From the NCBI RefSeq assembly GCF_008065095.1, contig NZ_CP042911.1, forward strand, positions 3,810,001-3,842,000: a stretch of 32,000 nt of DNA. Reading direction: 5' to 3'. Both the position numbers and the translations under genes were made by a program. The DNA comes from Gemmata obscuriglobus (lineage in GTDB: Bacteria > Planctomycetota > Planctomycetia > Gemmatales > Gemmataceae). Each line of letters begins with the position of its first letter. The stretch's first letter is position 1. The notes beneath the pieces were generated by a model. The model was not told where the DNA came from, did no database searches, and worked only from the letters and a program-made list of their open reading frames with translations. Positions 1,413 to 26,358 of this stretch are shown one piece after another.

Positions 1413-2915
1413 GTGGCTACCACACCCGCTCACAACCGACTGCGAATCCTGTTCGTCGACGACGAGACGCACCTGCGGGAGTTCATGCGATCGGAGCTGC
1501 CCCGCCTCGGGCACGAGGTCACCGTTTGCGCGGACAGTAAGGCCGGGATCGAGACCGTCAAGAAGCAGACGTTCGACGCGGCCATCCTCGACATGCGGAT
1601 GGAGCACGACAAGGCCGGGCTCCAGGTGCTCGCCGCGCTCAAGCAGGTCGCCCCGGACACCGAGGCGGTCATCATGACCGGCTACGGCAGCACGGAGACC
1701 GCGGTCGAGGCGCTGCGCCTGGGGGCGTTCGACTACCTGACCAAGCCGTGCAAGCTGACCGACATCGAGGCGCTGCTCCTGCGCATCCAGGAGAAGCGGC
1801 GGCTGAAGCACAAGACCGCGGCCCTGGAGAGCCGGGTGCAGGCGGCGGAAGGGCCGGCCGGCCTGATCGGGGCCAGCGCGGCGATGGTGCCGGTGCAGCA
1901 GTTCATCCAGCGGGTCGGGCCGACCGACGGGCGGGTGCTCATCACCGGCGAGACCGGCACCGGGAAGGAAGTGGTCGCGCGGGCGCTGTACACGGCGAGC
2001 AAGCGGGCCGACATGCCGTTCGTGCCGGTGAACTGCGGCGCCCTCACGCAGTCCCTGGCCGAGAGCCAACTGTTCGGCCACAAGAAGGGCGCGTTCACCG
2101 GCGCCGACAAGGACCACAAGGGGTTCTTCGAGGTCGCCAACGGCGGCACCCTGTTCCTCGACGAACTCGGGGAACTCGACAAGAACCTTCAGGTGAAGCT
2201 GCTCCGGTTCCTTGAGGCCGGTGAGATCCAGCGCCTCGGCGAGAGCCAGCCCATCACCGTGGACGTGCGGGTCATCAGCGCGACCAACAAGGACCTGCGC
2301 CAGATGGTCGCGGAGGGGCACTTCCGCGAGGACCTCTTGTACCGGCTGAACATGTTCCACGTCCACCTGCCCCCGCTGCGGGACCGGCGCGAGGACATCC
2401 CGGAACTGGCCCGGCACGCACTGGCCCGGCACGCCAAGCGCCCGGTGGAGTCGGTCGCGCACCTGATTACGCCCGAGGCGTTTCAGGTGATGGTGAACCA
2501 CGAGTTCAAGGGGAACGTGCGGGAACTGGTGAACGCGATGGAGTATGCGTGGATCGTGTCGGGCGGGGGCGCGATCACCCCCGACTACCTGCCGCGCGAA
2601 ATGGTGGCGCCGCGCGCCGCCGCGCCGGTTCCGATGGCGTACCCGGTGCCCGCGCCGGCGCCGGCCGCGTACCCCACCGCTTACGCCGCGCCGCCGGCCC
2701 CGACGCTCCCGTTCCCGGGGGCGCCGACAACTGATACAGGTGCGGGCGGCCCGACGAAGTCGCTGGCGGACGTGGAAATGGAGTACATTCTTCAGGTGTA
2801 CGCAAAGAACGGGATGAACAAGCAGAAGACCAGTGACGAACTCGGGATCAGTCTAAAAACGCTCTACAACAAGCTGCACAAGTATGAAGAGGAGCGGCAG
2901 CGCCGCGCCGGATGA
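1413..2915 (+). CDS. Sigma-54-dependent response regulator / enhancer-binding protein (NtrC family: REC + AAA+ sigma-54 interaction domain + Fis-type HTH)
   Basis: GTG start at 1413, preceded by GGAG at 1402-1405. REC motifs LFVDDE, ILDMRM and YLTKP. Walker A GETGTGKE, the sigma-54 contact loop GAFTGA (KKGAFTGAD) and Walker B TLFLDELGEL. C-terminal HTH KQKTSDELGISLKTLYNKL. Confidence 0.93.
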   Translation: MATTPAHNRLRILFVDDETHLREFMRSELPRLGHEVTVCADSKAGIETVKKQTFDAAILDMRMEHDKAGLQVLAALKQVAPDTEAVIMTGYGSTETAVEALRLGAFDYLTKPCKLTDIEALLLRIQEKRRLKHKTAALESRVQAAEGPAGLIGASAAMVPVQQFIQRVGPTDGRVLITGETGTGKEVVARALYTASKRADMPFVPVNCGALTQSLAESQLFGHKKGAFTGADKDHKGFFEVANGGTLFLDELGELDKNLQVKLLRFLEAGEIQRLGESQPITVDVRVISATNKDLRQMVAEGHFREDLLYRLNMFHVHLPPLRDRREDIPELARHALARHAKRPVESVAHLITPEAFQVMVNHEFKGNVRELVNAMEYAWIVSGGGAITPDYLPREMVAPRAAAPVPMAYPVPAPAPAAYPTAYAAPPAPTLPFPGAPTTDTGAGGPTKSLADVEMEYILQVYAKNGMNKQKTSDELGISLKTLYNKLHKYEEERQRRAG

Positions 2916-5581: not shown

Positions 5582-5822
5582 GAGAGCTTCCAGGGGGAAC
5601 CCCGAGCCGGTGGGCCGCGCCGCGGTTAGGCGCGACACGCCGCCTCGTCGTACTTTATCAACCCCGGCACTGTTGCGGGTAACGGGTTGTGCGGTTCGCG
5701 GCGGCCCCGGCGCGTCACAGCGCGGGGATTTCTCCTTGTGAACTGCGCCATCAGTTGACAAAATCGGCAAGGTGCGCGTGTTGTTCCCGGCACACCGGTC
5801 ACGGACAGAAGTGGGTACCGCC

Positions 5823-8800
5823 ATGCGTGGCTCCAAACTGCGGTTGTTGTCGGCCGGGGTGCTCGCGGCCCTGTTCGCGTGGCTCGTCACGTGGGCCGGG
5901 CACGTCGCGAACGGTCAACCGGCGGTCATCGGCGTCGCGCAAGCCAAAAAGGACGGCAAGGACGATAAAAATAAAAAGGAAGATCGCTCCGAACTCGACG
6001 AGAACTTGCCGTTCTCGGTCCCCTACGACCGCGACGCCAAGAACCAGCTCAAGGCGGCGCGCGACTACCTCGACTTCAAGGACCCGCCGTACAACACGAT
6101 CTGCCCGCTGCTCCAGAACATCCTGGACGCCAAGAGCGATACGTTCTTCGATGTGAAGTACAAGGTCGGCGAGACGGTCCGCATCAACCGGATCAGCGTC
6201 AAGACCGAGGCCAACCGCATTATCGCGGAGTTCAAGGCCGAAGGGCTCCAGTTCTACCAGCAGGCCTACGGGGCGACCGCGTCGGCCCTGCTCGACGACG
6301 CAATCAAGGCGAACTGCGACCCGGCGCTGCTGTCCGACGTGTCGCAGCGGTACTTCAACACGCGGGCCGGGGCCGAGGCCACCGTTCTGCTCGGCACCCT
6401 GCACCTCGAGCGCGGCAACTACCTCGAAGCGGCGTACGCGTTCGAGCGCCTGCTGCCCCGCAAAGACGTTGAAGACATTTTGACGCCGCGGACGCTGTTC
6501 AAGACCGCGCTGGCCTTCAAACGGAGCGGTGACCCGCGGCACGCGGACCTATACAAGCCCGCTGAAGAAAAGCTGTTCAAGGCCGCGCGGGACGGGATCA
6601 AGTTCGGTCGCACCGTGTTCACCTTGGACCGGCTGCGGTCCGAACTGGCCCGCCCGGTGGAGCTGGTGCGCTCCAACGCCGTGGTGGGCGAGTGGGCGCA
6701 ACGCGGCGGCAACGCCGGCCGCAACGCGGTCGTGGACGGCGGGCCGCCGTTCCTCGACAAGGTGTTCGGGTTCCCGATGTTCTACTCGGGCGACGACGAG
6801 GCCAACCTGTGGATCAAGGGCGAGCTGGAGAAGCTGTTCGCCCGCGACGCCCGCGCTTCCAAAAGCACCCCGCTGCCGGGCACCTTCCCAGTGACCACCG
6901 GCGACACCATCGTGTTCCGCAGCTACGACGGGGTGTATGGGGTCGCCACCCGCGACCGGGTGCAGGGGGGCCGCGTCGTTCGCGCCGGCGACATCCTCTG
7001 GCGGTCCAAGACGACGGCCGGGTTGTACCAGCTCATCAAGAGCGACGAGACCCACGACGTGGACATGAGCCGGGACGCGAAGAGCTGGTGGGGCACGTAC
7101 AACACCCGCACCGTCAAGGTTCACAACATCCTGCACGAGAACCCGCTGATCGGGTCGCTGGCGCACGACGGCCAGAACGTGTACTTCGTGGACGACCTCG
7201 CGATCACGCCGCCCCCCGTTTACAACAACCCGGAGTTCGGCATCAACTCCGGGCCGCAGTTCCGTCACTCGGGCGACCTGGCCGAAATGGTGCGGGCCGG
7301 CCGGCTCGCCGCGGTCGACATCAAGAGCGGCAACATCCGCTGGGAACTCGGCCGCGTCAAGGCGCCCCCGCCGGACAGCGACGGGAAGGCGCCGCCCCCC
7401 GCTCCGCTACCGAACTCGCTGACCGAAGAAGAAGCCGACAAAACCACCGACGCGTTCCGGTTGTGCCTGGACGCGGTGTTCCTCGGCGCGCCGATGCCGC
7501 TCAACGGCAAACTGTATGTGCTCATCGAGCAGGCCGGGGTGATGCGGCTCCTGTGCCTCGATCCGAAGACCCTGGTGAAGGTTCCGGGGCCGGACCCGAC
7601 GCCGAAGCCCGCCCTGGTGTGGACCCAGAAGCTCGGGAAGCCGAACAGCACCCTGCCGACCGACTCGGTGCGGCGGTACCAGGGCTGCACGCTCGCCGCC
7701 AGCGACGGCATCATCATCTGCCCGACCAACTCCGGCGTGGTGGTGGCCGTGGACGTGATGTCGCGCAGCCTGCTGTGGGCGCACGGGTACCGCCAGGTGT
7801 CGCCGGCGCCGCCGCGCGGGTTCGACCCGAACACCGGCATGCCGATCGTACCGGAGCAACTCCCCGACGACCGGTGGCGGTCGGCCGGGCCGATCGTCAG
7901 CGGCGGGCGCGTGATCCTGACCGCCTACGACTCGCGGAAGCTCGAGTGCCTCGACCTGCGGACCGGGAAGATCCTCTGGACCGTGAACCACGACGCCAAC
8001 GACCTCTACGTCGGCGGGGTGGCGAACGACCGCGTGATCGTGGTCGGCAAGAACCAGATGCGGGCGTACCGGCTCGGCGGCGAGGACACCGACAAGAAGG
8101 CCCCGAAGGCGGCGTGGGGGCCGGTTACGATCCCGACCCCGACCGGGCACGGGGCGGTCGGCCGGAACGCGTTTTACGTACCGGTCCGTCAGGACGCCGC
8201 CGGGAAGGACACCGTTCCGGCGGGCGAGATCTGGGCCATTAACATTGAGGACGGCAAGGTCCTCTCAAAGACCGGCGCCCGAAAGCGGAACGACACCGAG
8301 ACGCTCGCCCGCTACGGCATCGGGAACCTCGTGTTCCAGGACGGAATGGTCTACTCCCAATCCCCCTGGGAGGTGGCGGCGTACCCGCAGTTGGAACTCA
8401 AGATCGCGGAGATGAACAGGCTCCTCGACAAGAACCCGAAGGACCCGATCGGGCTCCTGGCGCGCGGCGAACTCCGGCTGGACGACGGCAAGCTCAAGGA
8501 CGCCATCGCGGACTTCAAGGACGCCGAGCGGAACAACCTGCCGGTCGAGAAGAAGCCGCTCCTCCGGGAGAAGCTCTACATCGCGTACACGGAACTGCTC
8601 CGGGCCGACTTCAACGGCGGTGAGAGCGTCCTGTCGGAGTACGAGGCGCTGTGCGAGGTGCCGGCGCTCGGCGAGGAAACGGCCGAGGACAGGTTGCGCC
8701 GCGAGGACGAGATCCGGCGCCGCAAGCGGCTGTACTACTACTTGCTCGCCCGCGGGCGCGAGACCCAGGAGCGGCTCGGGGAGGCATTCGACCACTACCT

Positions 8801-10817
8801 CGCGCTGGCCAACTTGGGCGAGGGCAAGCAGCTCCTCGATATGCCAGACGAGCCCAACGTGAAGATGCGCCCGGACGTGTGGGCGCGGGGGCGGCTCGAG
8901 GTCATGATCCGCCGCGCCGCGACCCCGGAGGCCAAGCGGTCGCTTGAGGCGCGCGTCGAGAAGGAGTGGGGCCTCGTGAAGGGCGGGACGGACCTGGGCC
9001 GGCTCCGCGAGTTCGTCGCGGTGTTCGGGCCGTTCTTCGCCTCCGGCACCGAGGCCCAGTTCAAACTGGCCGACGTGCTCCTCTCGACCAACAACGAGGC
9101 CGACGCCCGCGAAGCCCAGACGTGCCTGGCGCACCTCCGGGCCAGTTCCGATGACGCCACGACCCGTGCCCGCGCCACGGAAGCGCTGGCACAAGTGATG
9201 ATCAAGAGCCGGATGATGGAGGACGCGGTCGGCCTGTACTTCCAGCTCGGCAAGGAGTACCCGAACGTCGTGATCCGCGACGGCAAGACCGGCGCCGACT
9301 TCCTCACCAACCTGCTGACCGACAAGCGCCTGCTGCCGTTCCTCGAGCCGAGCCGCTACCCGCTGCCCACCCGGGTGAAGGCCGAAATGGCCGGCCCCTC
9401 CGCCAACATGAACAACGGCTCGCAGATCGAAATCGAGCCGCCCGCGGATCTGTTCCCGGCGTACCGGCGGCTCCGGTACACGCTCGACGGCAGCACCGGG
9501 CTGTTCGCGCTCCGCGTGTTCGACCGCTCCACCGGGGCCGTGCGGGCCACGTTCCCGCACATGCAGAGCCCGAACATGTACTCGCGGAACGGGCAGCCGA
9601 TCCCCTGGTCGAAGTTCGTGCAGGGGCACGGCCACCTGATGCTGGTGCAGATGGGCCTGACCCTGTACTGCTACGACCTCGCCGAGAAGAAGGTGCTGTG
9701 GGACAAGAACCTGATGCCCGACAACCCGCTCCAGCCCGGGGGCAGCTACCAGATCGACGTCCTGCCCAACGGGGACTGTGAGCTGTACTTGCTGCCGAAC
9801 ACCCAGAAAGTGCCTCTGGGCCGGTCGGCGGTGCTCCAGGCGGGGTACTGTGCCGTCCTCACGTCCGACGGGCTGGAGGCGGTCGAACCGGTCAGCCGCC
9901 GCGTGCTCTGGGTCCGCAAGAACGTGTCCGAGCGCACGTCGCTGTACGGCGACGGGCGCTACCTCGTGCTGATCGACGTGGACTCCAACACCCGGAAGCC
10001 GGTCTCTACAAAGCTGCTCCGGGCCACGGACGGGGTGCAGGTGGAGGGCTCGCCCGATTCCGGTGAGGTGCTCAAGAACGCGCGGTCGTACCGCCTGTTC
10101 GGGCGGCACGCGCTGATCACCTCTGGCGCGGACAACGAGCCCCGCGTGCTCCGGCTGTACGACCTCGCCACGGGCAAGGACGTTTGGAAGAAGGAGTACG
10201 ACTCCAAGGCGGTGCCGATCACCGCGCCACTGAACGCCGACTGGACCGGCGCCCTCAAGGCCGACGGCACCGCGGAGGTGATCTCGGTCCGCACCGGGGA
10301 GACGATCACGACGCTGAAACTCGACCCCAAGAACCTTGAGGCCCACTTGGTACCGTGTGTCGGGGCGCAGGTGCTGGCCGACAGCGACCGGTATTACCTG
10401 ATCCTGGACCGCGATCCGAATGCGGCGTCAACGAACGGCAACCGGCCGGTGCAAGTCCAGAACAACGCGATGCTGAGGGCGCAGAAGGTCAACGGGCCGG
10501 TTTACGCCTTTGACCGGGTCTCCGGGAAACGGCTGTGGCTCTACGAGGGGGTGCTCGAACACCAGTGGCTCGTACTCGAACAGTTCGCTGAGTTGCCGGT
10601 GCTGATCGCGACGGCACCGGTGATGAACCAGAACAACGTGTACAGCCACGCCGTTGTGGTGATCGAGAAGGAGCGCGGCCGGCTGATCCTCGATACGTCG
10701 GTTGTCTACAACGGGAACTTGTTCCAAAGCCTTGCCATTGACCCGAAGAACGGCACGATTCGGATGAGCCGGTTCGACACCAGCGTCCTGATCTCGCCCG
10801 ACGAGAAGAAGCCGTAA
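5823..10817 (+). CDS. Giant secreted protein: N-terminal helical/TPR-like region, PQQ-like (BamB-type) beta-propeller, alpha-solenoid/TPR region, second beta-propeller
   Basis: 1681-aa ORF from GTG 5772. The preferred ATG at 5823 gives a signal-peptide-like MRGSKLRLLSAGVLAALFAWLVTWAGHVANG. Propeller-blade signatures recur: AAVDIKSGNIRWEL, VAVDVMSRSLLWAH, LECLDLRTGKILWTV, WAINIEDGKVL, YCYDLAEKKVLWDKN, VEPVSRRVLWVRKN, LYDLATGKDVWKKEY, AFDRVSGKRLWLYE. A helical repeat stretch lies around LLDKNPKDPIGLLARGELRLDDGKLKDAIADFKDAE. Confidence 0.85.
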   Translation: MRGSKLRLLSAGVLAALFAWLVTWAGHVANGQPAVIGVAQAKKDGKDDKNKKEDRSELDENLPFSVPYDRDAKNQLKAARDYLDFKDPPYNTICPLLQNILDAKSDTFFDVKYKVGETVRINRISVKTEANRIIAEFKAEGLQFYQQAYGATASALLDDAIKANCDPALLSDVSQRYFNTRAGAEATVLLGTLHLERGNYLEAAYAFERLLPRKDVEDILTPRTLFKTALAFKRSGDPRHADLYKPAEEKLFKAARDGIKFGRTVFTLDRLRSELARPVELVRSNAVVGEWAQRGGNAGRNAVVDGGPPFLDKVFGFPMFYSGDDEANLWIKGELEKLFARDARASKSTPLPGTFPVTTGDTIVFRSYDGVYGVATRDRVQGGRVVRAGDILWRSKTTAGLYQLIKSDETHDVDMSRDAKSWWGTYNTRTVKVHNILHENPLIGSLAHDGQNVYFVDDLAITPPPVYNNPEFGINSGPQFRHSGDLAEMVRAGRLAAVDIKSGNIRWELGRVKAPPPDSDGKAPPPAPLPNSLTEEEADKTTDAFRLCLDAVFLGAPMPLNGKLYVLIEQAGVMRLLCLDPKTLVKVPGPDPTPKPALVWTQKLGKPNSTLPTDSVRRYQGCTLAASDGIIICPTNSGVVVAVDVMSRSLLWAHGYRQVSPAPPRGFDPNTGMPIVPEQLPDDRWRSAGPIVSGGRVILTAYDSRKLECLDLRTGKILWTVNHDANDLYVGGVANDRVIVVGKNQMRAYRLGGEDTDKKAPKAAWGPVTIPTPTGHGAVGRNAFYVPVRQDAAGKDTVPAGEIWAINIEDGKVLSKTGARKRNDTETLARYGIGNLVFQDGMVYSQSPWEVAAYPQLELKIAEMNRLLDKNPKDPIGLLARGELRLDDGKLKDAIADFKDAERNNLPVEKKPLLREKLYIAYTELLRADFNGGESVLSEYEALCEVPALGEETAEDRLRREDEIRRRKRLYYYLLARGRETQERLGEAFDHYLALANLGEGKQLLDMPDEPNVKMRPDVWARGRLEVMIRRAATPEAKRSLEARVEKEWGLVKGGTDLGRLREFVAVFGPFFASGTEAQFKLADVLLSTNNEADAREAQTCLAHLRASSDDATTRARATEALAQVMIKSRMMEDAVGLYFQLGKEYPNVVIRDGKTGADFLTNLLTDKRLLPFLEPSRYPLPTRVKAEMAGPSANMNNGSQIEIEPPADLFPAYRRLRYTLDGSTGLFALRVFDRSTGAVRATFPHMQSPNMYSRNGQPIPWSKFVQGHGHLMLVQMGLTLYCYDLAEKKVLWDKNLMPDNPLQPGGSYQIDVLPNGDCELYLLPNTQKVPLGRSAVLQAGYCAVLTSDGLEAVEPVSRRVLWVRKNVSERTSLYGDGRYLVLIDVDSNTRKPVSTKLLRATDGVQVEGSPDSGEVLKNARSYRLFGRHALITSGADNEPRVLRLYDLATGKDVWKKEYDSKAVPITAPLNADWTGALKADGTAEVISVRTGETITTLKLDPKNLEAHLVPCVGAQVLADSDRYYLILDRDPNAASTNGNRPVQVQNNAMLRAQKVNGPVYAFDRVSGKRLWLYEGVLEHQWLVLEQFAELPVLIATAPVMNQNNVYSHAVVVIEKERGRLILDTSVVYNGNLFQSLAIDPKNGTIRMSRFDTSVLISPDEKKP

Positions 10818-10843: not shown

Positions 10844-11232
10844 ACCGCTCGCGCCGTTCTTTCGACCGCCGCGGGTGAACTGCCCCCTGTCGCATGCTTG
10901 TGCATTGCGCTGGGGGCGGTTCGCTCGCGGAAGTGATCGCGTCAAACCGCCTGGGTTAGCGGGCAGTCACCTCGACGTGTTCGGGCTCCCTCATCGCCAA
11001 GGTTACGCTAAATTGAGACGGATGTAATTGGTTCGGTCAGTGCGATTCGCTCCGGCCTCGGCAGTTTTGTTTCCCGTTTTTCACCTCTTGGCCGGCCTTT
11101 CTCGGTTTTGAGTGGGCATTTCCTATCCACCGGTGTTAACGTTTTTCTCGCCGTTCGTCTCTGACCTACCCTCCCAGGTTCGGCCCGTGCGGCAGACCCG
11201 GCCCCGCCAATGGACTTTATGTGGAGAAACTC

Positions 11233-12459
11233 ATGCCCCGTAGCTGGTCGCTCGCAGCCCTCGCGGCGTGTGTGACGGTCGGCCTCGTAGCCGTTCCCTC
11301 ACCTCAACCCGTTACCGCCGCCGCACCTCAGGACGACGCGAAGAAGAAGTTCAAGAAGGATGTCGAGGCGTCGATCGAGAAAGGGCTGGAATACCTGAAA
11401 AAGATCCAGGCGCAGGACGGGCACTGGGAGGCACAGGGGGGACAGTACCCGACCAGCATGACGGCGCTGGCCGGGATGGCGTTCCTGATGGAAGGGAGCA
11501 CGCTGAAAGAGGGCAAATACTCGGACCAGGTGAAGAAGGCCGTGGACTGGTTCCTGGCTCCGGCCCGGCAACAGCCCAACGGCATGATCGGCGACGTGCG
11601 CAACCCCACCGAGCAGACCCGGTACATGTACGGCCAGGGGTTCGGCACCATGTTCCTGGCGAGCGTGTACGGCGAGGAAGAGGACAAGGAGCAGCGGGAG
11701 AAGTTGGAAAAGCTACTCAAGAAGGCGGTCGAGTTCATCTGCAAGGCCCAGACCCTCAAGAAGCACCGCAAGGCCGAGGGCAAGGAGGTGGACATCGGCG
11801 GGTGGGGGTACGTGAGCGCCGCCGAGGGCAACAACTTCGACGAGGGGTCCGTCACCATCACCGCGCTCCAGGGGCTCCGCGCCGCCCGCAACGCCGGCAT
11901 CCCCGTCCCCAAAGAGAACATCGACCGCGCCGTCAACTACCTCGAAGCCTGCACCACCCCGAAGGGTGGGATCATTTACAGCTACGCCGGCGGCGGCGGG
12001 GCGGTCGGCGAGAACGGGCGCCCGCCCCTCACCGCGGCGGCGGTCTGCTGCGGGTTCAGCGCCGGGCAGTACAAGAGCGAACTGCCAAAACGGTGGATCA
12101 AGTACTGCAAGGACAACATTCCGGTCGGTAAGGGGCGGCAGAGCCACGACGAGTACCAGACCTACTACTTCTCGCAGGCCGTGTACGCGCTCGGGGACGA
12201 CAAGTACCTGGAGATGTTCCCGCTCCTGAAGGCCGACGGGAAGACGCCGAAAGTGTACGGCGACCTGACGGCCGGCGAGAAGGAGCAACTGCTCACCTGG
12301 AGCGGGTACAAGGACGCCACGTTCCAGACCATTCTCGACAACCAGGACAAGACCAACGGGTCGTGGAGCCAGGGGTACATCGGGCCGGTTTACACCACGA
12401 GCATCAATCTCTGCATCCTTCAGTTAGAAAAGGCGATCCTGCCCATCTATCAGAAGTAG
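11233..12459 (+). CDS. Secreted prenyltransferase/squalene-oxidase-repeat protein (terpenoid-cyclase-like alpha/alpha toroid fold)
   Basis: ATG 11233 is preceded by GGAG (11223-11226). The N-terminus looks like a signal peptide (MPRSWSLAALAACVTVGLVAVPSP). Repeats resemble the Q-x-x-x-G-x-W motif of squalene-cyclase/prenyltransferase repeats: IQAQDGHWE, QQPNGMIG, IGGWGY, KGGIIYSY, TNGSWSQG. At about 408 aa it is too short to be an oxidosqualene cyclase. Confidence 0.8.
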   Translation: MPRSWSLAALAACVTVGLVAVPSPQPVTAAAPQDDAKKKFKKDVEASIEKGLEYLKKIQAQDGHWEAQGGQYPTSMTALAGMAFLMEGSTLKEGKYSDQVKKAVDWFLAPARQQPNGMIGDVRNPTEQTRYMYGQGFGTMFLASVYGEEEDKEQREKLEKLLKKAVEFICKAQTLKKHRKAEGKEVDIGGWGYVSAAEGNNFDEGSVTITALQGLRAARNAGIPVPKENIDRAVNYLEACTTPKGGIIYSYAGGGGAVGENGRPPLTAAAVCCGFSAGQYKSELPKRWIKYCKDNIPVGKGRQSHDEYQTYYFSQAVYALGDDKYLEMFPLLKADGKTPKVYGDLTAGEKEQLLTWSGYKDATFQTILDNQDKTNGSWSQGYIGPVYTTSINLCILQLEKAILPIYQK

Positions 12460-12618
12460 CGCCGTGCGCCGCCGGTCGGGGTTGTAACGCCGACCGCCGG
12501 CCGGCGCGTGCCTGCGGGGGGCAAAATCCGCAGTTCGCAGGCGACGGCCCTCCCCGGCACACGGTATCTCTATCCCTAAACTCGACCCAAATTACCACCT
12601 CCGAGGGCGGTGACCGCG

Positions 12619-13677
12619 ATGAGCAAGACACCCGAGATGGCCCAGAGCGATATGGACGCGATCCAGAAGCTCAAGACCGCGTTCGACAACATCAAGAAGC
12701 AGCTCACGCGGGTCATCGTCGGCCAGGACATGGTGATCGAGGAGCTGCTCATCGCGCTCTTCAGCAAGGGCCACTGCATGCTCGAGGGCGTGCCGGGCCT
12801 CGCGAAGACGCTCATGATCAGCACCCTGTCGCGGTGCCTGTCGCTGGAGTTCAGCCGCATCCAGTTCACCCCGGACCTGATGCCGGCGGACATCACCGGC
12901 ACGGACTTCATCGAGAAGAACCCGGCGACCGGCTCGTTCGAGCTGCTGTTCCGGCCCGGCCCGCTGTTCGCCAACATGGTGCTGGCCGACGAGATCAACC
13001 GCACCCCGCCCCGCACCCAGGCGGCGCTCCTCGAAGCGATGCAGGAGCGCCAGGTGTCCGTCGGCCGCGTGCGGCACAAGCTCGCCAACCCGTTCTTCGT
13101 GCTCGCGACCCAGAACCCGATCGAACAGGAAGGGACCTACCCGCTGCCCGAGGCGCAGCAGGACCGGTTCATGTTCAAGGTGTACGTGAAGTACCCGAAG
13201 TTCGAGGAGGAGTTCGAGATCGCCCGCCGCACCACCGGCGTGACCGCCGACGAGATCACCCCGGTGCTGACCGGCGAGCAGATCCAGGAGATCCAGCAGC
13301 TCGTCCGCAAGGTGCCGGTGACCGACCACGTCATCCACTACTGCCTCGCGCTGGTCCGGCAGACCCGCATCGGCGAGCCCGGCGTCCCGAAGTTCGTCAA
13401 GGACTGGCTGAGCTGGGGCGCGGGCCCCCGCGCCGTGCAGAACCTGATCCTGGCCGGCAAGGCCCGCGCGCTGCTGTACGGCCGCGGGCACGTCACGACC
13501 GAGGACATCAAGGAACTGGCGCTGCCGGTGCTCCGGCACCGCATCCTGACCAACTTCACCGCCGCCTCCGAGGGCATTAACACCGACATGGTGGTCAAGA
13601 AGCTCATCGAGGAGACGCCGGACAAGGAGGGCTCGCTGATCAACGACCCGCGGTTCCAGAAGATCTTCTCCTCGTGA
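12619..13677 (+). CDS. MoxR-family AAA+ ATPase
   Basis: Walker A GVPGLAKT and Walker B VLADEINR. Typical MoxR (AAA_3) blocks: [47 protein letters not shown] 12619 is preferred, with GTG 12610 as an alternative. Confidence 0.95.
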
Positions 13678-13679
13678 CC

Positions 13680-13775
13680 GGGGTTCCACGTTCCGGGTTC
13701 CACGTTCCAAGTTGGGAACCCGGATCGGCCCCTTGATGAGAAACTTGGAACCTGGAACTTGGAACCTGGAACTTC
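13680..13775 (+). repeat. Inverted pair of heptad/14-nt tandem repeats, (GTTCCNN)x4 ... (GGAACNN)x4, able to form a 34-position hairpin filling the moxR-DUF58 junction
   Basis: GGGTTCCACGTTCC occurs twice in tandem (13681-13708). AACTTGGAACCTGG occurs twice in tandem plus a partial copy (13742-13776). Pairing 13680-13713 with 13742-13775 gives 28 Watson-Crick pairs, 4 G-U pairs and 2 C-C mismatches. The loop is 13714-13741. The helix ends 2 nt before the DUF58 ATG at 13778. Confidence 0.75.
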
Positions 13776-13777
13776 CG

Positions 13778-14728
13778 ATGGCCAAGCGCCGCCAAGAGCC
13801 CGAGAACCCGCGCCGGTTCCTCGACCCCAAGGTGATCGCCCGCGTCTCGCAGCTCGACCTGCGGGCGCGGTACGCGGTCGAGGGGTTCATCTCCGGGATG
13901 CACCGGAGCCCCGTGTACGGGCAGAGCGTCCAGTTCGTCCAGCACCGCGAGTACATGCCCGGCGACGACCTGCGCCGCATCGACTGGAAGGTCTGGTCGC
14001 GGTCCGACAAGTTCGTCATCAAGCAGTACGAGGCGGAGACGAACCTCCGCTCCTACGTCGTCGTGGACGCCAGCGAGTCCATGCTCTATGGGCGGGACAA
14101 GCACCGCCGCGCCGGCACGCTGTACAAGTACGATTACGTGGCCACCGCCGCGGCGTGCCTGGCGTACCTGACGATCAAGCAGCAGGACTCGTGCGGGCTC
14201 GTCACGTTCGACTCGGACGTGCGCGAGGCGATCCCGCCGCGCAGCTCGCAGCGGCACATGGACGCCGTCACCAAGGCGCTCCACGTGTCGGACCCGCGCG
14301 AGAAGACCGACATGGTCAAGATCATGCGGCAGGTCGCGGAGGCCATGCCGGCCCGCGGGCTGGTGCTGGTCTTCTCCGACTTCCTGTGCGACCGCGCGGA
14401 GCTGTTCAAAGGGCTGGAGATGCTGCGGCACCGCCGGCACGACGTGATGGCGTTCCACATCCTCGACGACGACGAGCTGCTGTTCCCGTTCGGCGGGATG
14501 ACGAAGTTCGAGGGGCTGGAGGCGCAGCCCGACCTCCTGTGCGACCCGCGGGCGCTGCGGGACGGCTACCTGGAGGAGCTGGAGCTGTACCTGACCGAGG
14601 TGCGCCGCGGGTGCACCCGGATCGGCGTGGACTACACGCTGCTCCGCACCAGCGATTACATGGACGCGGTCTTGTCGAAGTTCCTGTTCGAGCGGATGTC
14701 CACCCGGGCCGCACCCGCGCGGCGCTGA
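13778..14728 (+). CDS. DUF58 family protein (vWA-like partner of MoxR)
   Basis: Hallmark DUF58 block HRSPVYGQSVQFVQHREYMPGDDLRRIDWKVWSRSDKFVIKQYEAE, followed by MIDAS-like VVVDASESM. The start is ATG 13778. The longer ORF from 13712 would translate the hairpin repeat. Confidence 0.92.
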   Translation: MAKRRQEPENPRRFLDPKVIARVSQLDLRARYAVEGFISGMHRSPVYGQSVQFVQHREYMPGDDLRRIDWKVWSRSDKFVIKQYEAETNLRSYVVVDASESMLYGRDKHRRAGTLYKYDYVATAAACLAYLTIKQQDSCGLVTFDSDVREAIPPRSSQRHMDAVTKALHVSDPREKTDMVKIMRQVAEAMPARGLVLVFSDFLCDRAELFKGLEMLRHRRHDVMAFHILDDDELLFPFGGMTKFEGLEAQPDLLCDPRALRDGYLEELELYLTEVRRGCTRIGVDYTLLRTSDYMDAVLSKFLFERMSTRAAPARR

Positions 14729-14821
14729 TGTCGAACTCGGAGTGCGGGCCGCGGCGGTCCTCGCCCCCGACCTCCTTCGGTTTTTCGTCCGCGCCCCGCG
14801 TTCCGAACTTCTGAGACTCCG

Positions 14822-17710
14822 ATGCTGTCGCTGTTCCTCAACCCGTGGACGTTCCTCGCCGGCGCGGCGCTGATCGCCGCGCCGATCGTCATCCACCTCA
14901 TCAACCGGATCCGGTTCCGGCGGGTGCAGTGGGCGGCGATGGAGTTCTTGCTGAAGGCGCAGAAGCGGATGCGCCGCCGCAAGATCCTCGAGCAGCTCCT
15001 GCTCCTGCTCCTGCGGTGCCTGATCGTGTTCCTCGTCGGGCTGCTGCTCGGGCGGTTCCTCGGGTGCAACTCCGGACAGGGCAAGGAGACCCGCGCGACG
15101 ACGCACCTCGTCATCCTCGACGACTCGCCCAGCATGGCCGACGTGTGGCGCGACGAGGGGGCGCAGACGGACGCGTTCGCCGTCGGCAAGCGGCTGATCC
15201 ACGAGAAGCTGATGCGGGCGGCGGGCGAGGCGGCCACCGCGCAGACGTTCCAGGTGATGCGTACTTCGGAACTCGGGAAGCCGTTCCCGGCGAAGCCCGA
15301 AGAGGCCAAGGTCAACGCCGCCGCGATCGAGGCGATGGAGGGGCACCTCGCCCAGTTCCAGGTGTCCACCGTCCGGCGGAGCCTGCGGGACGCCCTCGAC
15401 GCCGCGAAGGCCCACATGGCCACCGTGCCGGCGGGCGAGGCGAAGGTGATCCACGTCCTGTCGGACCTCCGCAACGTGGACTGGGCCGAGGACGGGCAGG
15501 CCGTCAACGACAAGCTCACCGAACTGAAAGACAGCGGCGCGACGGTCCACCTGATCGACGTGGCCCCCCCGGCGCGCAAGCCGGACCGCAAGTCGCCGCC
15601 GTTCACCGACAACGTGGCGATCGTGGAGGTGAAGCCCCGCAACCGCGTCGTGGCCGCTAACCAGCAGACCGAACTCGAGGTGAGGCTCAAGAACTACGGC
15701 AGCACCGACCTCAAGGAGGTTCGGGTGGAGTTTTACGTCAACGGCGAGATGCGCCGCGACATCTCGCTGGTGGTGCCGAGCCTGCCCGCGAACCAGGAGC
15801 GGGTGGCGACGTGTCAGGCGACGTTCACCCAGGTCGGCACCCGCGAGAAGCCGCTGGACCGGTTCAACCTCGTGACCGCGGTGCTCGCCGTCCCCGAGCC
15901 GGGCGGCCTCGCCATCGACAACGTCCGCCACGCCGTGGTCGAGGTGCGGCCGAAGCTCCAGGTGCTGGTGGTGGACGGCCGGGTGGACAAGCGCGACAAG
16001 CAGGACGGCGACAGCTTCTACCTGCGGCGCCTCTTCATCGACTCGTTCGGGGGCATCGACTGGGTCACCACCGAGCCGCCCAAACTGGACGGGCTGGACC
16101 TCCGCCCGTTCACGACGGTCTACCTGCTGAACGTACCGACCCTGTCGCCGGGGGCGGTGACGAACCTGGAGCAGTTCGTCTCGAACGGCGGCGGGGTGGG
16201 CGTGTTCCTCGGCCCCGACGTTAAGCCCGACGAGTACACGGCCCGGATGTACAAGGGCGGGGCCGGGTTCTTCCCGGTGCCGCTGCCGGCGAAGTTCACC
16301 GACGAGCTGAAGCCCGAGCAGAAGACCGCGCGGGAGCTGGCGTTCGGGAAGCGGGTGATCCTGCGCGACCCGGCGAACCGGCAGCACCCGGCGCTGTCCG
16401 CGATCTACACCAACGAGCGCGGCGGCACCGCCAAGGACAGCGAGGTGGAGCGGTACTTCCTGTTCACCAACATCGACTTCTACTGGCCGGTGGCCCGGCG
16501 CGGCGGCTGGCGCGAGGACAAGTTGGTGCGGGAGCTGTACTGCATGCCCAACGAGAAGCCGATCGCCGAGTTCGAGGAGCGGGCGCGGAACCTCGTGATC
16601 GAGGTGAAGAAGCGGTACAACGAGCCGAAGTTCGAGAAGGCCCGCAAGTACCTGGACCCGCTGCTGCGGCAGATCCAGGAGACGCCCGCGCAGGTGGGCA
16701 TCCCGCTGTCGGTGCTAGCCCGTTACCTCGACCAGCTCCTGTGCGACCAGATCAACGACGGCGACGAGAGCGAGCCGGTGCTGCGCGACTTCTGGAGCCA
16801 GCCGGAGCTGGCCGAGGTGCGCCCGCAGGCGACGGCCCTGCGCGACGAGGCCAAGTTCGGCGACCCGCTGTACATCGTGAAGGAGTTCGGGCGCGGGCGG
16901 GTGGCGGTGATGACCACCGACGCCGGCGGCACCCACAGCCCCGGGAACAAGCAGTGGACGGACTGGCCGTCGGGTAAGGGGAGCCCCGGCTGGGTCGTGG
17001 TCGTGAGCGAGATGCAGAAGTACCTGTCCGGCGGCGGCGCGGAAGGGAACCTGGCGCTGGGGGACCGGTTCTTCGCCGAGTTCGAGGCCACCCGGTACAA
17101 GCCGTTCGCGGCCCGGCACCTGCTGACCGCGGACGTGGCGAAGGCCGAGGGCGGGCGCGCCCTGCTCACCCTCAAGCCGCTGACCGATCAGGTGCTCGAT
17201 CAGCCCGCGAACCCGCCCGACGCCGCACCGGACGCGCCGCGCCGGCCGCTCCAACTCGCGTACGCCGACGCCCGGGTGCCGGGCGCCTACCTCTTCTCCC
17301 TGACGCGCCTGAAGGGCGACAAGGACCCGCCGGGCACCCCCGCCGAGCAGCCCGATTACGCGGCGGTGGCGTTCAACGTGGACGCGATGCGCGAGGCGGA
17401 CCTGCGGCGCGCGAACACCGACGACCTGGCGCAGTGGACCAACAAGGCCCCGATCCACAACACCGATGACCTCTCGTGGCTCGACGACTTCAAGCAGAAG
17501 CCGTCGGACATGTCGAGCCGGCGGTGGCTGTACTTCCTGCTCCTGCTGGTGCTGATCGCCGAGCAGGCGTGGGCCGTCCGGATGAGCTACCACACCAAGC
17601 CGGAAGACCTGGAGGCGCTGGCCCCCAGCGCCGCCGCCGCGTTCCAGCCGCGGTCCACCCCGCTCCCGACCGAGGCCGCCGCGGACGAACCGGTCGGCGC
17701 CGGCGCGTGA
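14822..17710 (+). CDS. BatA_N (N-terminal double-transmembrane) / vWA-domain membrane protein, 962 aa
   Basis: The N-terminus MLSLFLNPWTFLAGAALIAAPIVIHLINR plus a second TM (LLLLLLRCLIVFLVGLLLG) matches the aerotolerance-regulator BatA N-terminal architecture. A MIDAS-type HLVILDDSPSM is followed later by VLSDL. There is a C-terminal TM, RRWLYFLLLLVLIAEQAWAV. Confidence 0.88.
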   Translation: MLSLFLNPWTFLAGAALIAAPIVIHLINRIRFRRVQWAAMEFLLKAQKRMRRRKILEQLLLLLLRCLIVFLVGLLLGRFLGCNSGQGKETRATTHLVILDDSPSMADVWRDEGAQTDAFAVGKRLIHEKLMRAAGEAATAQTFQVMRTSELGKPFPAKPEEAKVNAAAIEAMEGHLAQFQVSTVRRSLRDALDAAKAHMATVPAGEAKVIHVLSDLRNVDWAEDGQAVNDKLTELKDSGATVHLIDVAPPARKPDRKSPPFTDNVAIVEVKPRNRVVAANQQTELEVRLKNYGSTDLKEVRVEFYVNGEMRRDISLVVPSLPANQERVATCQATFTQVGTREKPLDRFNLVTAVLAVPEPGGLAIDNVRHAVVEVRPKLQVLVVDGRVDKRDKQDGDSFYLRRLFIDSFGGIDWVTTEPPKLDGLDLRPFTTVYLLNVPTLSPGAVTNLEQFVSNGGGVGVFLGPDVKPDEYTARMYKGGAGFFPVPLPAKFTDELKPEQKTARELAFGKRVILRDPANRQHPALSAIYTNERGGTAKDSEVERYFLFTNIDFYWPVARRGGWREDKLVRELYCMPNEKPIAEFEERARNLVIEVKKRYNEPKFEKARKYLDPLLRQIQETPAQVGIPLSVLARYLDQLLCDQINDGDESEPVLRDFWSQPELAEVRPQATALRDEAKFGDPLYIVKEFGRGRVAVMTTDAGGTHSPGNKQWTDWPSGKGSPGWVVVVSEMQKYLSGGGAEGNLALGDRFFAEFEATRYKPFAARHLLTADVAKAEGGRALLTLKPLTDQVLDQPANPPDAAPDAPRRPLQLAYADARVPGAYLFSLTRLKGDKDPPGTPAEQPDYAAVAFNVDAMREADLRRANTDDLAQWTNKAPIHNTDDLSWLDDFKQKPSDMSSRRWLYFLLLLVLIAEQAWAVRMSYHTKPEDLEALAPSAAAAFQPRSTPLPTEAAADEPVGAGA

Positions 17711-25534: not shown

Positions 25535-25566
25535 CAGCCGTACCGTTGGGGTTCCTGGTTCTGAAA

Positions 25567-25584
25567 CGGCACGGGCGCGTGCCG
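25567..25584 (+). terminator. Hairpin downstream of the 1216-aa gene (terminator-like, no U-tract)
   Basis: CGGCACG-GGCG-CGTGCCG, a 7-bp stem with a 4-nt loop, 33 nt after the TGA at 25532-25534. It is flanked by GTTCC/GTTCT pentamers at 25551, 25558 and 25591. Confidence 0.3.
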
Positions 25585-25909
25585 GCCGGTGTTCCTGCCA
25601 TCAGTACCATAGGGGCCGAGAGGTTAGCTGTGGGCTCGCATCGGGAGTGCCGTGCGAGGGGGCGGTCGCACGAAGGGGTGTAATGGGGTGAAAACGCCGC
25701 CACCGCTTCAACGCCGCCGGCACGTGATTCTCCGAACGAGTTCGGCCGCGAGTTACCGCCGCTCCGGGCGTCACTTTCGGGCGCTCGGTTCGGCGGTGTG
25801 CTTCAAAACTGAGTCGTGTCGGGGGCTATGCGGCCTTCTGAGATACCGGGTGTGATGGGGTAAGGCACTGCTGGTGGGTACGCTGACGGCACAGAAGTGG
25901 GGGGTACGA

Positions 25910-25953
25910 CTGACCGTTCGCTACCCATCCGCTGACGGTTCGCTCCCCATCCG
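25910..25953 (+). repeat. 22-nt tandem direct repeat (2 copies, 20/22 identical) in the non-coding gap
   Basis: CTGACCGTTCGCTACCCATCCG (25910-25931) and CTGACGGTTCGCTCCCCATCCG (25932-25953). Partial copies: CTGACGG at 25883-25889 and CTG at 25954. Confidence 0.6.
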
Positions 25954-26175
25954 CTGCCAGCGAATCGCCCGCATGACCCATAGATCCGGACCGACCTCGC
26001 GGGCAGAGATGGCTCAAGAGACATGGGAACCGTGGGACAATCGCGCGAAACCGCGGCCGCATGGCGGCAAATTGCCACTGCCGAATGGCGCCCAAATCTA
26101 TGGTCGCCAAGTTCTGCCGGTGGGAGGCGCCGGGCGATTAACCGGAACTTCGGGGCGTCCCGGTTTCTGCCCGCT

Positions 26176-26358
26176 TTGCGAGCGAGGTTGCGAGTGTTGG
26201 AGGCTGTCGGTGTTGAAGTTGCGAGCAGGAATTTGTTGGGCGCGTAACAAAGTGTAACATTGGACTGATCGCTCTCGGATTTTTCCCTGTTGCGTGTTGG
26301 CGGCCCTCTGGCGGGTCGTCAGAATGGCAGACGAATTGACGCCCGCGGCGCTTGCGAG
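26176..26358 (+). promoter_or_regulatory. Four copies of the heptamer TTGCGAG upstream of the 653-aa secreted-protein gene (candidate regulator-binding sites)
   Basis: TTGCGAG occurs at 26176-26182, 26188-26194, 26219-26225 and 26352-26358, all in the same orientation and all in non-coding sequence upstream of ATG 26387. Confidence 0.3.

Follow-up and report, generated by a model that had tools for sequence, protein, structure and literature searches.

The 32,000-nt stretch of the Gemmata obscuriglobus genome considered here (contig NZ_CP042911.1, positions 3,810,001 to 3,842,000; hereafter the window) contains a moxR gene followed by a DUF58 gene, and the gap between the two is taken up by a long hairpin built from inverted GTTCC heptads, which is the subject of this analysis. 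The moxR gene encodes an AAA_3 / AAA_lid_2 / bpMoxR ATPase (Pfam AAA_3 at E 5e-61) and lies at 12619-13677 on the + strand, with its TGA stop at 13675-13677. In public assemblies the gene-caller start is the ATG corresponding to 12619, which gives 352 aa, while its longest open reading frame (ORF) begins at GTG 12610. The DUF58 / VWA_2 gene (PF01882 at E 4e-47) lies at 13778-14728 on the + strand, and its start is assigned to ATG 13778 because orthologues share a conserved MAK/MAR N-terminus; the protein sequence is identical in GCA_000171775.1 and in two newer Gemmata obscuriglobus assemblies. Two upstream starts in the same frame were rejected, as orthologues begin at the MAK/MAR start: TTG 13712, and an ATG at 13736-13738 in the hairpin loop, which would add 14 residues (MRNLEPGTWNLELP) and is absent from strains L121 and L122 (L numbers denote the loci and contigs compared).

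The junction reads TGA-CC-left arm-28-nt loop-right arm-CG-ATG, the helix beginning 2 nt past the moxR stop and finishing 2 nt short of the DUF58 ATG. The left arm (13680-13713, + strand) consists of GGG, four GTTCC units at 7-nt spacing (13683, 13690, 13697 and 13704, with spacers AC, GG and AC) and AAGTT. The right arm (13742-13775) consists of AACTT, four GGAAC units at the same spacing (13747, 13754, 13761 and 13768, with spacers CT, TT and CT) and TTC. Between them lies the loop (13714-13741), which holds the non-conserved in-frame ATG and GGGAACCCGG, for which local pairing with CCGGGTTCC (13693-13701) is possible. Across the arms there are 28 Watson-Crick pairs, four G-U pairs (13681/13774, 13682/13773, 13695/13760 and 13696/13759) and two C-C mismatches (13689/13766 and 13703/13752). 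The original prediction, made from the sequence of the window, had given these heptad positions, pairing counts and gene boundaries, all of which proved exact on recount, as did its account of a junction almost wholly occupied by one very stable inverted-heptad helix. The GTTCC/GGAAC heptad pattern gives five matches against 0.01 expected in shuffles, and Tandem Repeats Finder (TRF) reports period 7, 4.4 copies and a 14-nt superperiod at 100% match for both arms, placing the arrays at 13683-13713 and 13742-13772, on opposite strands and 28 nt apart. Five further independent records, L123-L127, carry the identical element (four Logan read assemblies and the draft contig of 2008), and the hairpin is therefore not an assembly artefact.

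Folding of 13670-13790 with RNAfold gives -57.6 kcal/mol on the + strand (z = -4.4, with 1/200 shuffles as good). The - strand folds better still, at -62.3 kcal/mol (z = -6.2). A competing local stem that had been suggested also exists, pairing 13693-13701 with 13715-23 and giving -23.8 kcal/mol for the 5' half alone, far weaker than the main helix. Junction by junction, a GC-rich stem follows soon after every stop in the co-directional cluster of the window, and the moxR-DUF58 junction is the only outlier (z -6.0 vs -0.8 to -1.5 elsewhere). A search of 13400-14000 against Rfam 15 with E up to 10 returned only hits below gathering thresholds, the best being psaA (22.9 bits vs a gathering score of 50) and the other four, three microRNA families and one long non-coding RNA, likewise falling far short of theirs.

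Inverted GTTCC-heptad hairpins are found far beyond this operon. A metagenome scan with the pattern GTTCCNNGTTCC-N25-55-GGAACNNGGAAC, which specifies two heptads per arm and 20 bases, recovered them on at least 120 contigs. Among the matches listed, the hairpins have 3-7 heptads per arm and variable loops, on contigs of mostly 60-70% GC, and the spacer positions left unspecified by the pattern are complementary between the arms; on these grounds they are the same kind of object as the Gemmata hairpin. Several contigs carry 2-4 copies (e.g. L214, L226 and L151). Selection by GTTCC does partly impose the apparent universality of this core, and other heptad cores with inverted partners are present in the same contigs. 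The window MoxR, DUF58 and BatA proteins gave no tblastn match on any of the hairpin contigs, and the question of whether the element is operon-specific or dispersed is thus answered in favour of dispersal. Loop and spacer sequences differ from copy to copy, and the arms vary in length in whole-heptad steps.

Named genomes were surveyed with a one-arm pattern, for which the matches listed are mostly cyanobacterial and other tandem arrays; of these, 122/133 have no inverted partner, including long tandem arrays in metagenome-assembled genomes (MAGs) of Planctomycetota and in cyanobacteria. Inverted GTTCC pairs nevertheless appear, among the matches listed, in named genomes of about six phyla. 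They span Acidobacteriota (Pyrinomonadaceae, another Acidobacteria MAG and Thermoanaerobaculia), Planctomycetota (Phycisphaerae and Fimbriiglobus sp., a member of the Gemmataceae), Verrucomicrobiota (Spartobacteria), Chloroflexota (a Chloroflexi MAG), Methylomirabilota (Ca. Methylomirabilis) and, within the Gammaproteobacteria, the order Xanthomonadales (Rhodanobacter soli and Dyella tabacisoli). The Fimbriiglobus pair (L089) lies at a locus elsewhere in the genome, without MoxR or DUF58. We found no description of the element in the literature on GTTCC/GGAAC heptamers or planctomycete palindromic repeats.

The position of these hairpins relative to genes follows a typical pattern. Metagenome genes were called by a simple GC-by-codon-position method, and the score used to orient the flanks was correct for 162/165 test segments of the window. 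Where both flanks are coding, 25 hairpins lie between co-directional genes, 3 between divergent and 2 between convergent genes, and the hairpins are faced about as often by a gene 3' end (61) as by a 5' end (58). Among the oriented cases, the median distance is 4 nt from the upstream stop to the beginning of the stem (63% within -5 to +15) and 12 nt from the end of the stem to the next start (90% within 0-30). The exact filling of the junction, which the original prediction had singled out, is therefore a property of the class and not of the moxR-DUF58 operon, and the helix, described there as unusual inside an operon junction, has counterparts throughout the family that for the most part occupy co-directional junctions likewise. 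Arm mismatches read on the sense strand comprise 38 G-U and 32 A-C (p = 0.55), showing no preference for G-U. Selection for a helix in the sense RNA should favour G-U, and the balanced mismatches thus indicate no detectable RNA-strand-specific constraint. As a separate observation, a frame whose GC pattern looks coding continues across the GTTCC hairpin over hundreds of nucleotides in 7/60 oriented metagenome cases (L205, L209, L211, L219, L233, L243 and L246), two of which hold two hairpins in one ORF; either real copies inside genes or errors of the crude ORF calling could explain them.

Orthologous moxR-DUF58 junctions were compared in relatives at 96-77% DUF58 identity, and three kinds of hairpin occur there. 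The GTTCC-heptad hairpin is found in four lineages, comprising the window with L121/L122 (DUF58 protein identical), L128 (91%), L130 (88%) and L259 (82%; a Gemmataceae-like MAG, GCA_013822345.1). Spacers differ between these loci, and the L130 hairpin has 9/7/8-nt spacing while that of L259 has a degenerate right arm. Two lineages carry a heptad hairpin with a related core, GTTTC+GT / AC+GAAAC: L258/L257 (88%, and 97% to L130) and L260 (77%). The junction of the latter (L260:9822-10000) is a 179-nt inverted GTGTTTN/NAAACAC heptad hairpin of -75 kcal/mol, whose core is one transition from GTTCC. Unrelated GC hairpins occupy the junction in three further lineages, L256 (96%), L133 (82%) and L134 (81%). 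In L256, a 16-18-bp GC hairpin is followed by a decayed remnant of the right arm (CCGGAACTTTGCACCTGGGACTTTC), the left arm having been lost. L133 has a GC stem and then TTTT, and L134 has a different stem within a 201-nt junction. On the DUF58 tree the junction types are patchy, and sister sequences at 96-97% identity differ. The short-read contigs L257 (1-39) and L258 (1-110) start inside their junction heptad arrays, which suggests that heptad repeats break assemblies.

Turnover is fast even between close strains. The junctions of the window strain and L121 differ in 12/101 columns, against about 4.2% at the third codon positions of three flanking genes, i.e. roughly three times the divergence, and two neighbouring junctions differ by 6-7.5%. 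The loop sequence of the window strain is not that of strains L121 and L122, whose helices reach about -70 kcal/mol. Covariation at orthologous junctions, proposed earlier as a check on the element, was no better than in shuffled columns: a pair count on a six-sequence alignment gave 85.6% paired vs 84.4% after shuffling, and the covariation score equalled the shuffle mean, a comparison that is blurred because periodic arms let any GTTCC pair with any GGAAC and because the registers of L130 and L259 are shifted. The decay of right-arm GGAAC units in L256 after loss of the left arm points to a constraint on pairing and not on individual units. In 6/6 Gemmataceae loci scored, the moxR-DUF58 junction is structured (z -2.1 to -8.9), though their sequences are unrelated, while the other cluster junctions are strongly structured in some of the six genomes only.

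The closest described kind of element is the inverted GGGAATC heptamer pair of Xanthomonas. A Xanthomonas genome holds about 185 GGGAATC arrays, with 70-75 sites arranged as inverted pairs; these keep their place from species to species but vary in length and sequence, and their function is unknown (Rehm et al., 2015; PMC4692102). The same report cites an over-representation of heptamer simple sequence repeats (SSRs) in bacterial intergenic DNA, together with polymerase slippage as the explanation (PMC4692102). The Gemmata element shares with these pairs a 7-nt unit in about four copies per array, an intergenic location, nearby arrays on the opposite strand, stem-loop potential, and a position that relatives retain despite changes in length and sequence; a GGAA core is also common to the Gemmata unit NNGGAAC and to GGGAATC. 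The G-quadruplex and i-motif potential described there for Xanthomonas does not apply, as the Gemmata unit has GG only. Within the repeat units the one G-tract of at least three is the spacer-dependent GGG at 13695-13697, which excludes the G-quadruplex subclass and leaves the heptamer-pair class untouched. The host here is a planctomycete and the class spans about six phyla, unlike the Xanthomonas pairs, and tight filling of co-directional junctions is a trait of the present hairpins that does not appear in the accessible part of the Xanthomonas report.

Direct heptamer arrays offer a second comparison. The short tandemly repeated repetitive (STRR) sequences of cyanobacteria are intergenic heptanucleotide repeats, and GTTCC-type tandem arrays are matched in many cyanobacterial genomes among the matches listed. 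The TAACTGA repeats of Beggiatoaceae are likewise intergenic heptanucleotide repeats (PMC4679880). Both have in common with the Gemmata element abundant 7-nt tandem units confined to intergenic DNA; they are mostly direct arrays without an inverted partner, however, whereas the inverted arrangement defines the element described here.

Taken by its sequence, the element is one copy of a widespread and rapidly evolving class of inverted heptamer pairs that sit in short intergenic gaps of GC-rich environmental bacteria, many soil bacteria among them, and the hairpin is not a regulator tailored to the moxR-DUF58 operon. The interpretation we favour, with a probability of roughly 55%, is that of a palindromic heptanucleotide microsatellite, (GTTCC+2 nt)x4 in inverted arrays, for which any effect on expression would be a by-product and not dedicated control. 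Pointing to this interpretation are the anatomy, the dispersal, the filling of junctions, the fast turnover, the lack of RNA-strand-specific constraint and the one-arm decay in L256. Quasipalindrome correction consists of intrastrand template switching between the arms of an imperfect palindrome. Self-complementarity would on this account arise and be maintained by DNA-level processes, with replication slippage inside each array adding and removing heptads and template switching between the arms yielding changes that appear compensatory. The hairpin would be tolerated since a folded helix hardly lengthens the effective distance from stop to start. The moxR-DUF58 transcript would nonetheless have to fold into a helix of about 34 bp right after the moxR stop, which could serve, by analogy with known intercistronic stem-loops, as a barrier to exonucleases at the moxR 3' end, as a site of double-stranded RNA (dsRNA) cleavage, or as both. 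Initiation at DUF58 would be costly, at about 18 kcal/mol to open, and expression would be biased towards MoxR. By the same analogy, lower DUF58 expression and a protected moxR 3' end are probable side effects of the RNA hairpin.

Several points weigh against the microsatellite interpretation. Only one copy of the hairpin occurs in about 40 kb of Gemmata obscuriglobus (the 32-kb window and about 8 kb upstream). The 2-nt spacers vary far more than the GTTCC core, which pure slippage does not readily account for, although GTTCC was a requirement of the searches. Several of the changes between the window strain and L121 turn C-C and G-U into Watson-Crick pairs, an outcome that selection for pairing would yield too; template switching is a mechanism that we infer. 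Finally, the presence of structure at the moxR-DUF58 junction in all six loci leaves room for selection on the hairpin.

This last point is the starting point of the best of the alternatives, a possible though clearly less probable one, in which an intercistronic RNA stem-loop 3' of the moxR stop is selected independently of its sequence and the heptads are mere raw material. Such a stem-loop could act by transcription termination or attenuation, by blocking 3' exonucleases, or through dsRNA cleavage, giving differential expression in the manner of selective RNA processing and stabilisation (SRPS) or of repetitive extragenic palindromic (REP) elements. The REP element between malE and malF, for instance, stabilises the upstream cistron. 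REP elements and bacterial interspersed mosaic elements (BIMEs) have been reviewed (PMC3733652; PMC2817692), and the Gemmata hairpin resembles them in being one of many dispersed extragenic palindromes, inside an operon and directly 3' of a stop codon, and in forming a stable RNA stem-loop that, by analogy, may block 3' exonucleases and skew the expression of neighbouring cistrons. It is unlike them in having no conserved family sequence, in being built from a microsatellite, in its much longer arms (34 nt) and in lacking a demonstrated REP-associated tyrosine transposase (RAYT) partner. SRPS stem-loops at cistron 3' ends are described as setting operon stoichiometry (PMC8219983; PMC4423207). 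The resemblance lies in an intercistronic stem-loop that follows the upstream cistron and whose stability could govern the ratio of subunits, and SRPS-like stem-loop action is, by this analogy, most plausibly the way in which the element would act on RNA. SRPS stem-loops are defined by mapped processing sites and measured transcript ratios; unlike them, the Gemmata hairpin is not conserved among close relatives.

Besides the structure kept in all six loci despite unrelated sequences, selection of a stem-loop is favoured by the GC stem followed by TTTT in L133, by the short median distance of family hairpins from stop codons, and by the strain changes that improve pairing. Other evidence goes the other way. 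The stem runs into TTCCGATGG with no U-tract, and a scan of 12300-15000 for intrinsic terminators found 0 sites. The sense strand has no excess of G-U pairs and folds less well than its complement, gene 5' ends are found next to hairpins as frequently as 3' ends, and divergent arrangements are no scarcer than convergent ones. Hairpin strength at the moxR-DUF58 junction also ranges from -29 to -75 kcal/mol among relatives.

A bolder and rather improbable proposal holds that inverted heptad hairpins are selected intercistronic elements across phyla, or else the footprint of an unrecognised mechanism that generates and corrects palindromes, one that may place near-perfect long helices a few nucleotides past stops and about 12 nt before the next start. 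The six structured junctions, with their sequence turnover, would fit this proposal, as would the palindromes of L259. There, unique long palindromes lie at three other junctions of the cluster (8727-8791, 10950-11036 and 13985-14085), with arms of 27, 38 and 44 nt that are 100%, 100% and 98% complementary; the loops are 11-13 nt, the junction folds reach -65 to -120 kcal/mol and the three sequences are mutually unrelated. Heptad repeats also occur at the DUF58-BatA junction of syntenic clusters. That of the 88% orthologue (L130:3533-3652) holds a clean GCGGAAC...GTTCCGC heptad hairpin with the GGAAC arm first, and that of L260 (10946-11202) a 257-nt hairpin of -109 kcal/mol made of other 7-nt units (CTGTGGT, AAGTC...). 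The window has a degenerate and weak counterpart at 14729-14821 (+ strand; z -1.5), an imperfect junction-spanning hairpin with degenerate GAAC.../...GTTCC units. If the elements were selected, Gemmataceae would use long junction helices to punctuate or tune polycistronic expression generally.

The first role listed in the original prediction, a translational gate specific to this locus that sets MoxR:DUF58 stoichiometry by burying the DUF58 start, with the local 5' stem as a switch and DUF58 synthesised only once the helix opens, is very unlikely. The helix does end 2 nt before the ATG, the alternative stem does exist, and the helices of L128, L130 and L259 stop 6-17 nt before their DUF58 ATG. 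The region just upstream of the start would indeed be sequestered on a moxR-DUF58 transcript, so that this part of the earlier claim stands, but opening 13760-13790 costs 17.7 kcal/mol, within the 9.8-34.2 spanned by the starts of seven neighbouring genes. It is likewise true that no free Shine-Dalgarno sequence remains, an uninformative fact, as no such motif is present near the DUF58 start at all. Translational coupling was tried and rejected: in a thermodynamic model, a ribosome terminating on the moxR stop leaves the opening cost at 18.0 kcal/mol. In L256 about 46 nt separate the end of the hairpin from the DUF58 ATG, leaving the start free despite a 96% identical DUF58, and in L133 the distance to the start is about 36 nt. 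The same architecture recurs at many unrelated junctions, and the alternative stem is too weak a competitor for the main helix to lend the switch much credit. A dedicated gate is not supported in view of the dispersed copies, the free start of L256 and the null results for covariation and G-U pairs.

Less probable again is a non-autonomous mobile element, related to REP elements and their REPIN hairpins or to MITEs (miniature inverted-repeat transposable elements), and mobilised in trans. In its favour, the copies lie outside genes and are dispersed, with more than one on several contigs, and a gene with a weak Pfam Y1_Tnp (IS200/RAYT-like) match lies upstream of the syntenic cluster in L259 (1074-1724). 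That gene is preceded by an unrelated GC palindrome (GCGGCTTCGCGC...GCGCGAAGCCGC), however, with no link to the heptad hairpins seen. Loops and spacers are unconserved and arms vary by whole heptads. None of the REP tags GTAG, CGTC or their complements occurs in 13678-13777, and the junction shows neither a target-site duplication (flanks ...GTGACC / CGATGG...) nor a conserved core. Across lineages the sequence drifts but the hairpin stays at the orthologous position, and a collection of 2.9 million viral contigs gave just 7 matches.

Least credible of all is an array of DNA sites, operator or centromere-like, for a protein reading heptad-spaced GGAAC: the 2-nt spacers vary around a constant 5-nt core and heptad-reading DNA-binding proteins exist, the omega/ribbon-helix-helix (RHH) repressors being an example, but in L256, which has lost the left arm, the right-arm units decay, L258 and L260 have a different core (GAAAC), the repeat spans about six phyla and all intergenic orientations, and a sigma-70 scan around the junction found no promoter-like site. 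Heptameric direct repeats are also reported to be bound by the Streptomyces antibiotic regulatory protein (SARP) regulators (PMC5930380).

For annotation, it follows that the hairpin should not be recorded as a riboswitch-like or operon-specific regulator of MoxR and DUF58, although motif-discovery pipelines will keep flagging heptad hairpins as structured RNAs. Among uncultured GC-rich bacteria of several phyla, inverted heptamer pairs of the GTTCC type are common; they preferentially fill tight co-directional junctions and turn over faster than third codon positions. They are of practical relevance to operon and terminator prediction in Planctomycetota and to breaks in assemblies. Should the hairpins act on mRNA stability or translation, they would provide an easily evolvable knob for operon expression ratios.

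The surroundings of the junction place it in a larger conserved cluster. A protein with a BatA N-terminal domain match is the next gene (14822-17710, + strand) after DUF58. MoxR has a further match to PF20030 (bpMoxR, the MoxR component in MoxR-vWA-beta-propeller ternary systems), and a PQQ/beta-propeller-TPR protein of 1681 aa is encoded two genes upstream of moxR in the same orientation (5772-10817); together with 12619-17710 it may constitute a MoxR-vWA-beta-propeller ternary system. Synteny of the beta-propeller/MoxR cluster is kept in all of the long-flank Gemmataceae loci fetched (L121-L123, L133, L134, L259 and L260). Just upstream of the cluster are a sigma-54-dependent response regulator and a HAMP/HisKA kinase (window 1413-2915; L268:6225-9524), and divergently oriented radical-SAM/SPASM and PP2C genes separate this pair from the cluster. 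Further downstream, a 22-nt unit (CTGACCGTTCGCTACCCATCCG) is repeated 2.1 times at 25910-25956, within a 759-nt non-coding gap (25535-26293) that is unusually long for a tightly packed co-directional cluster.

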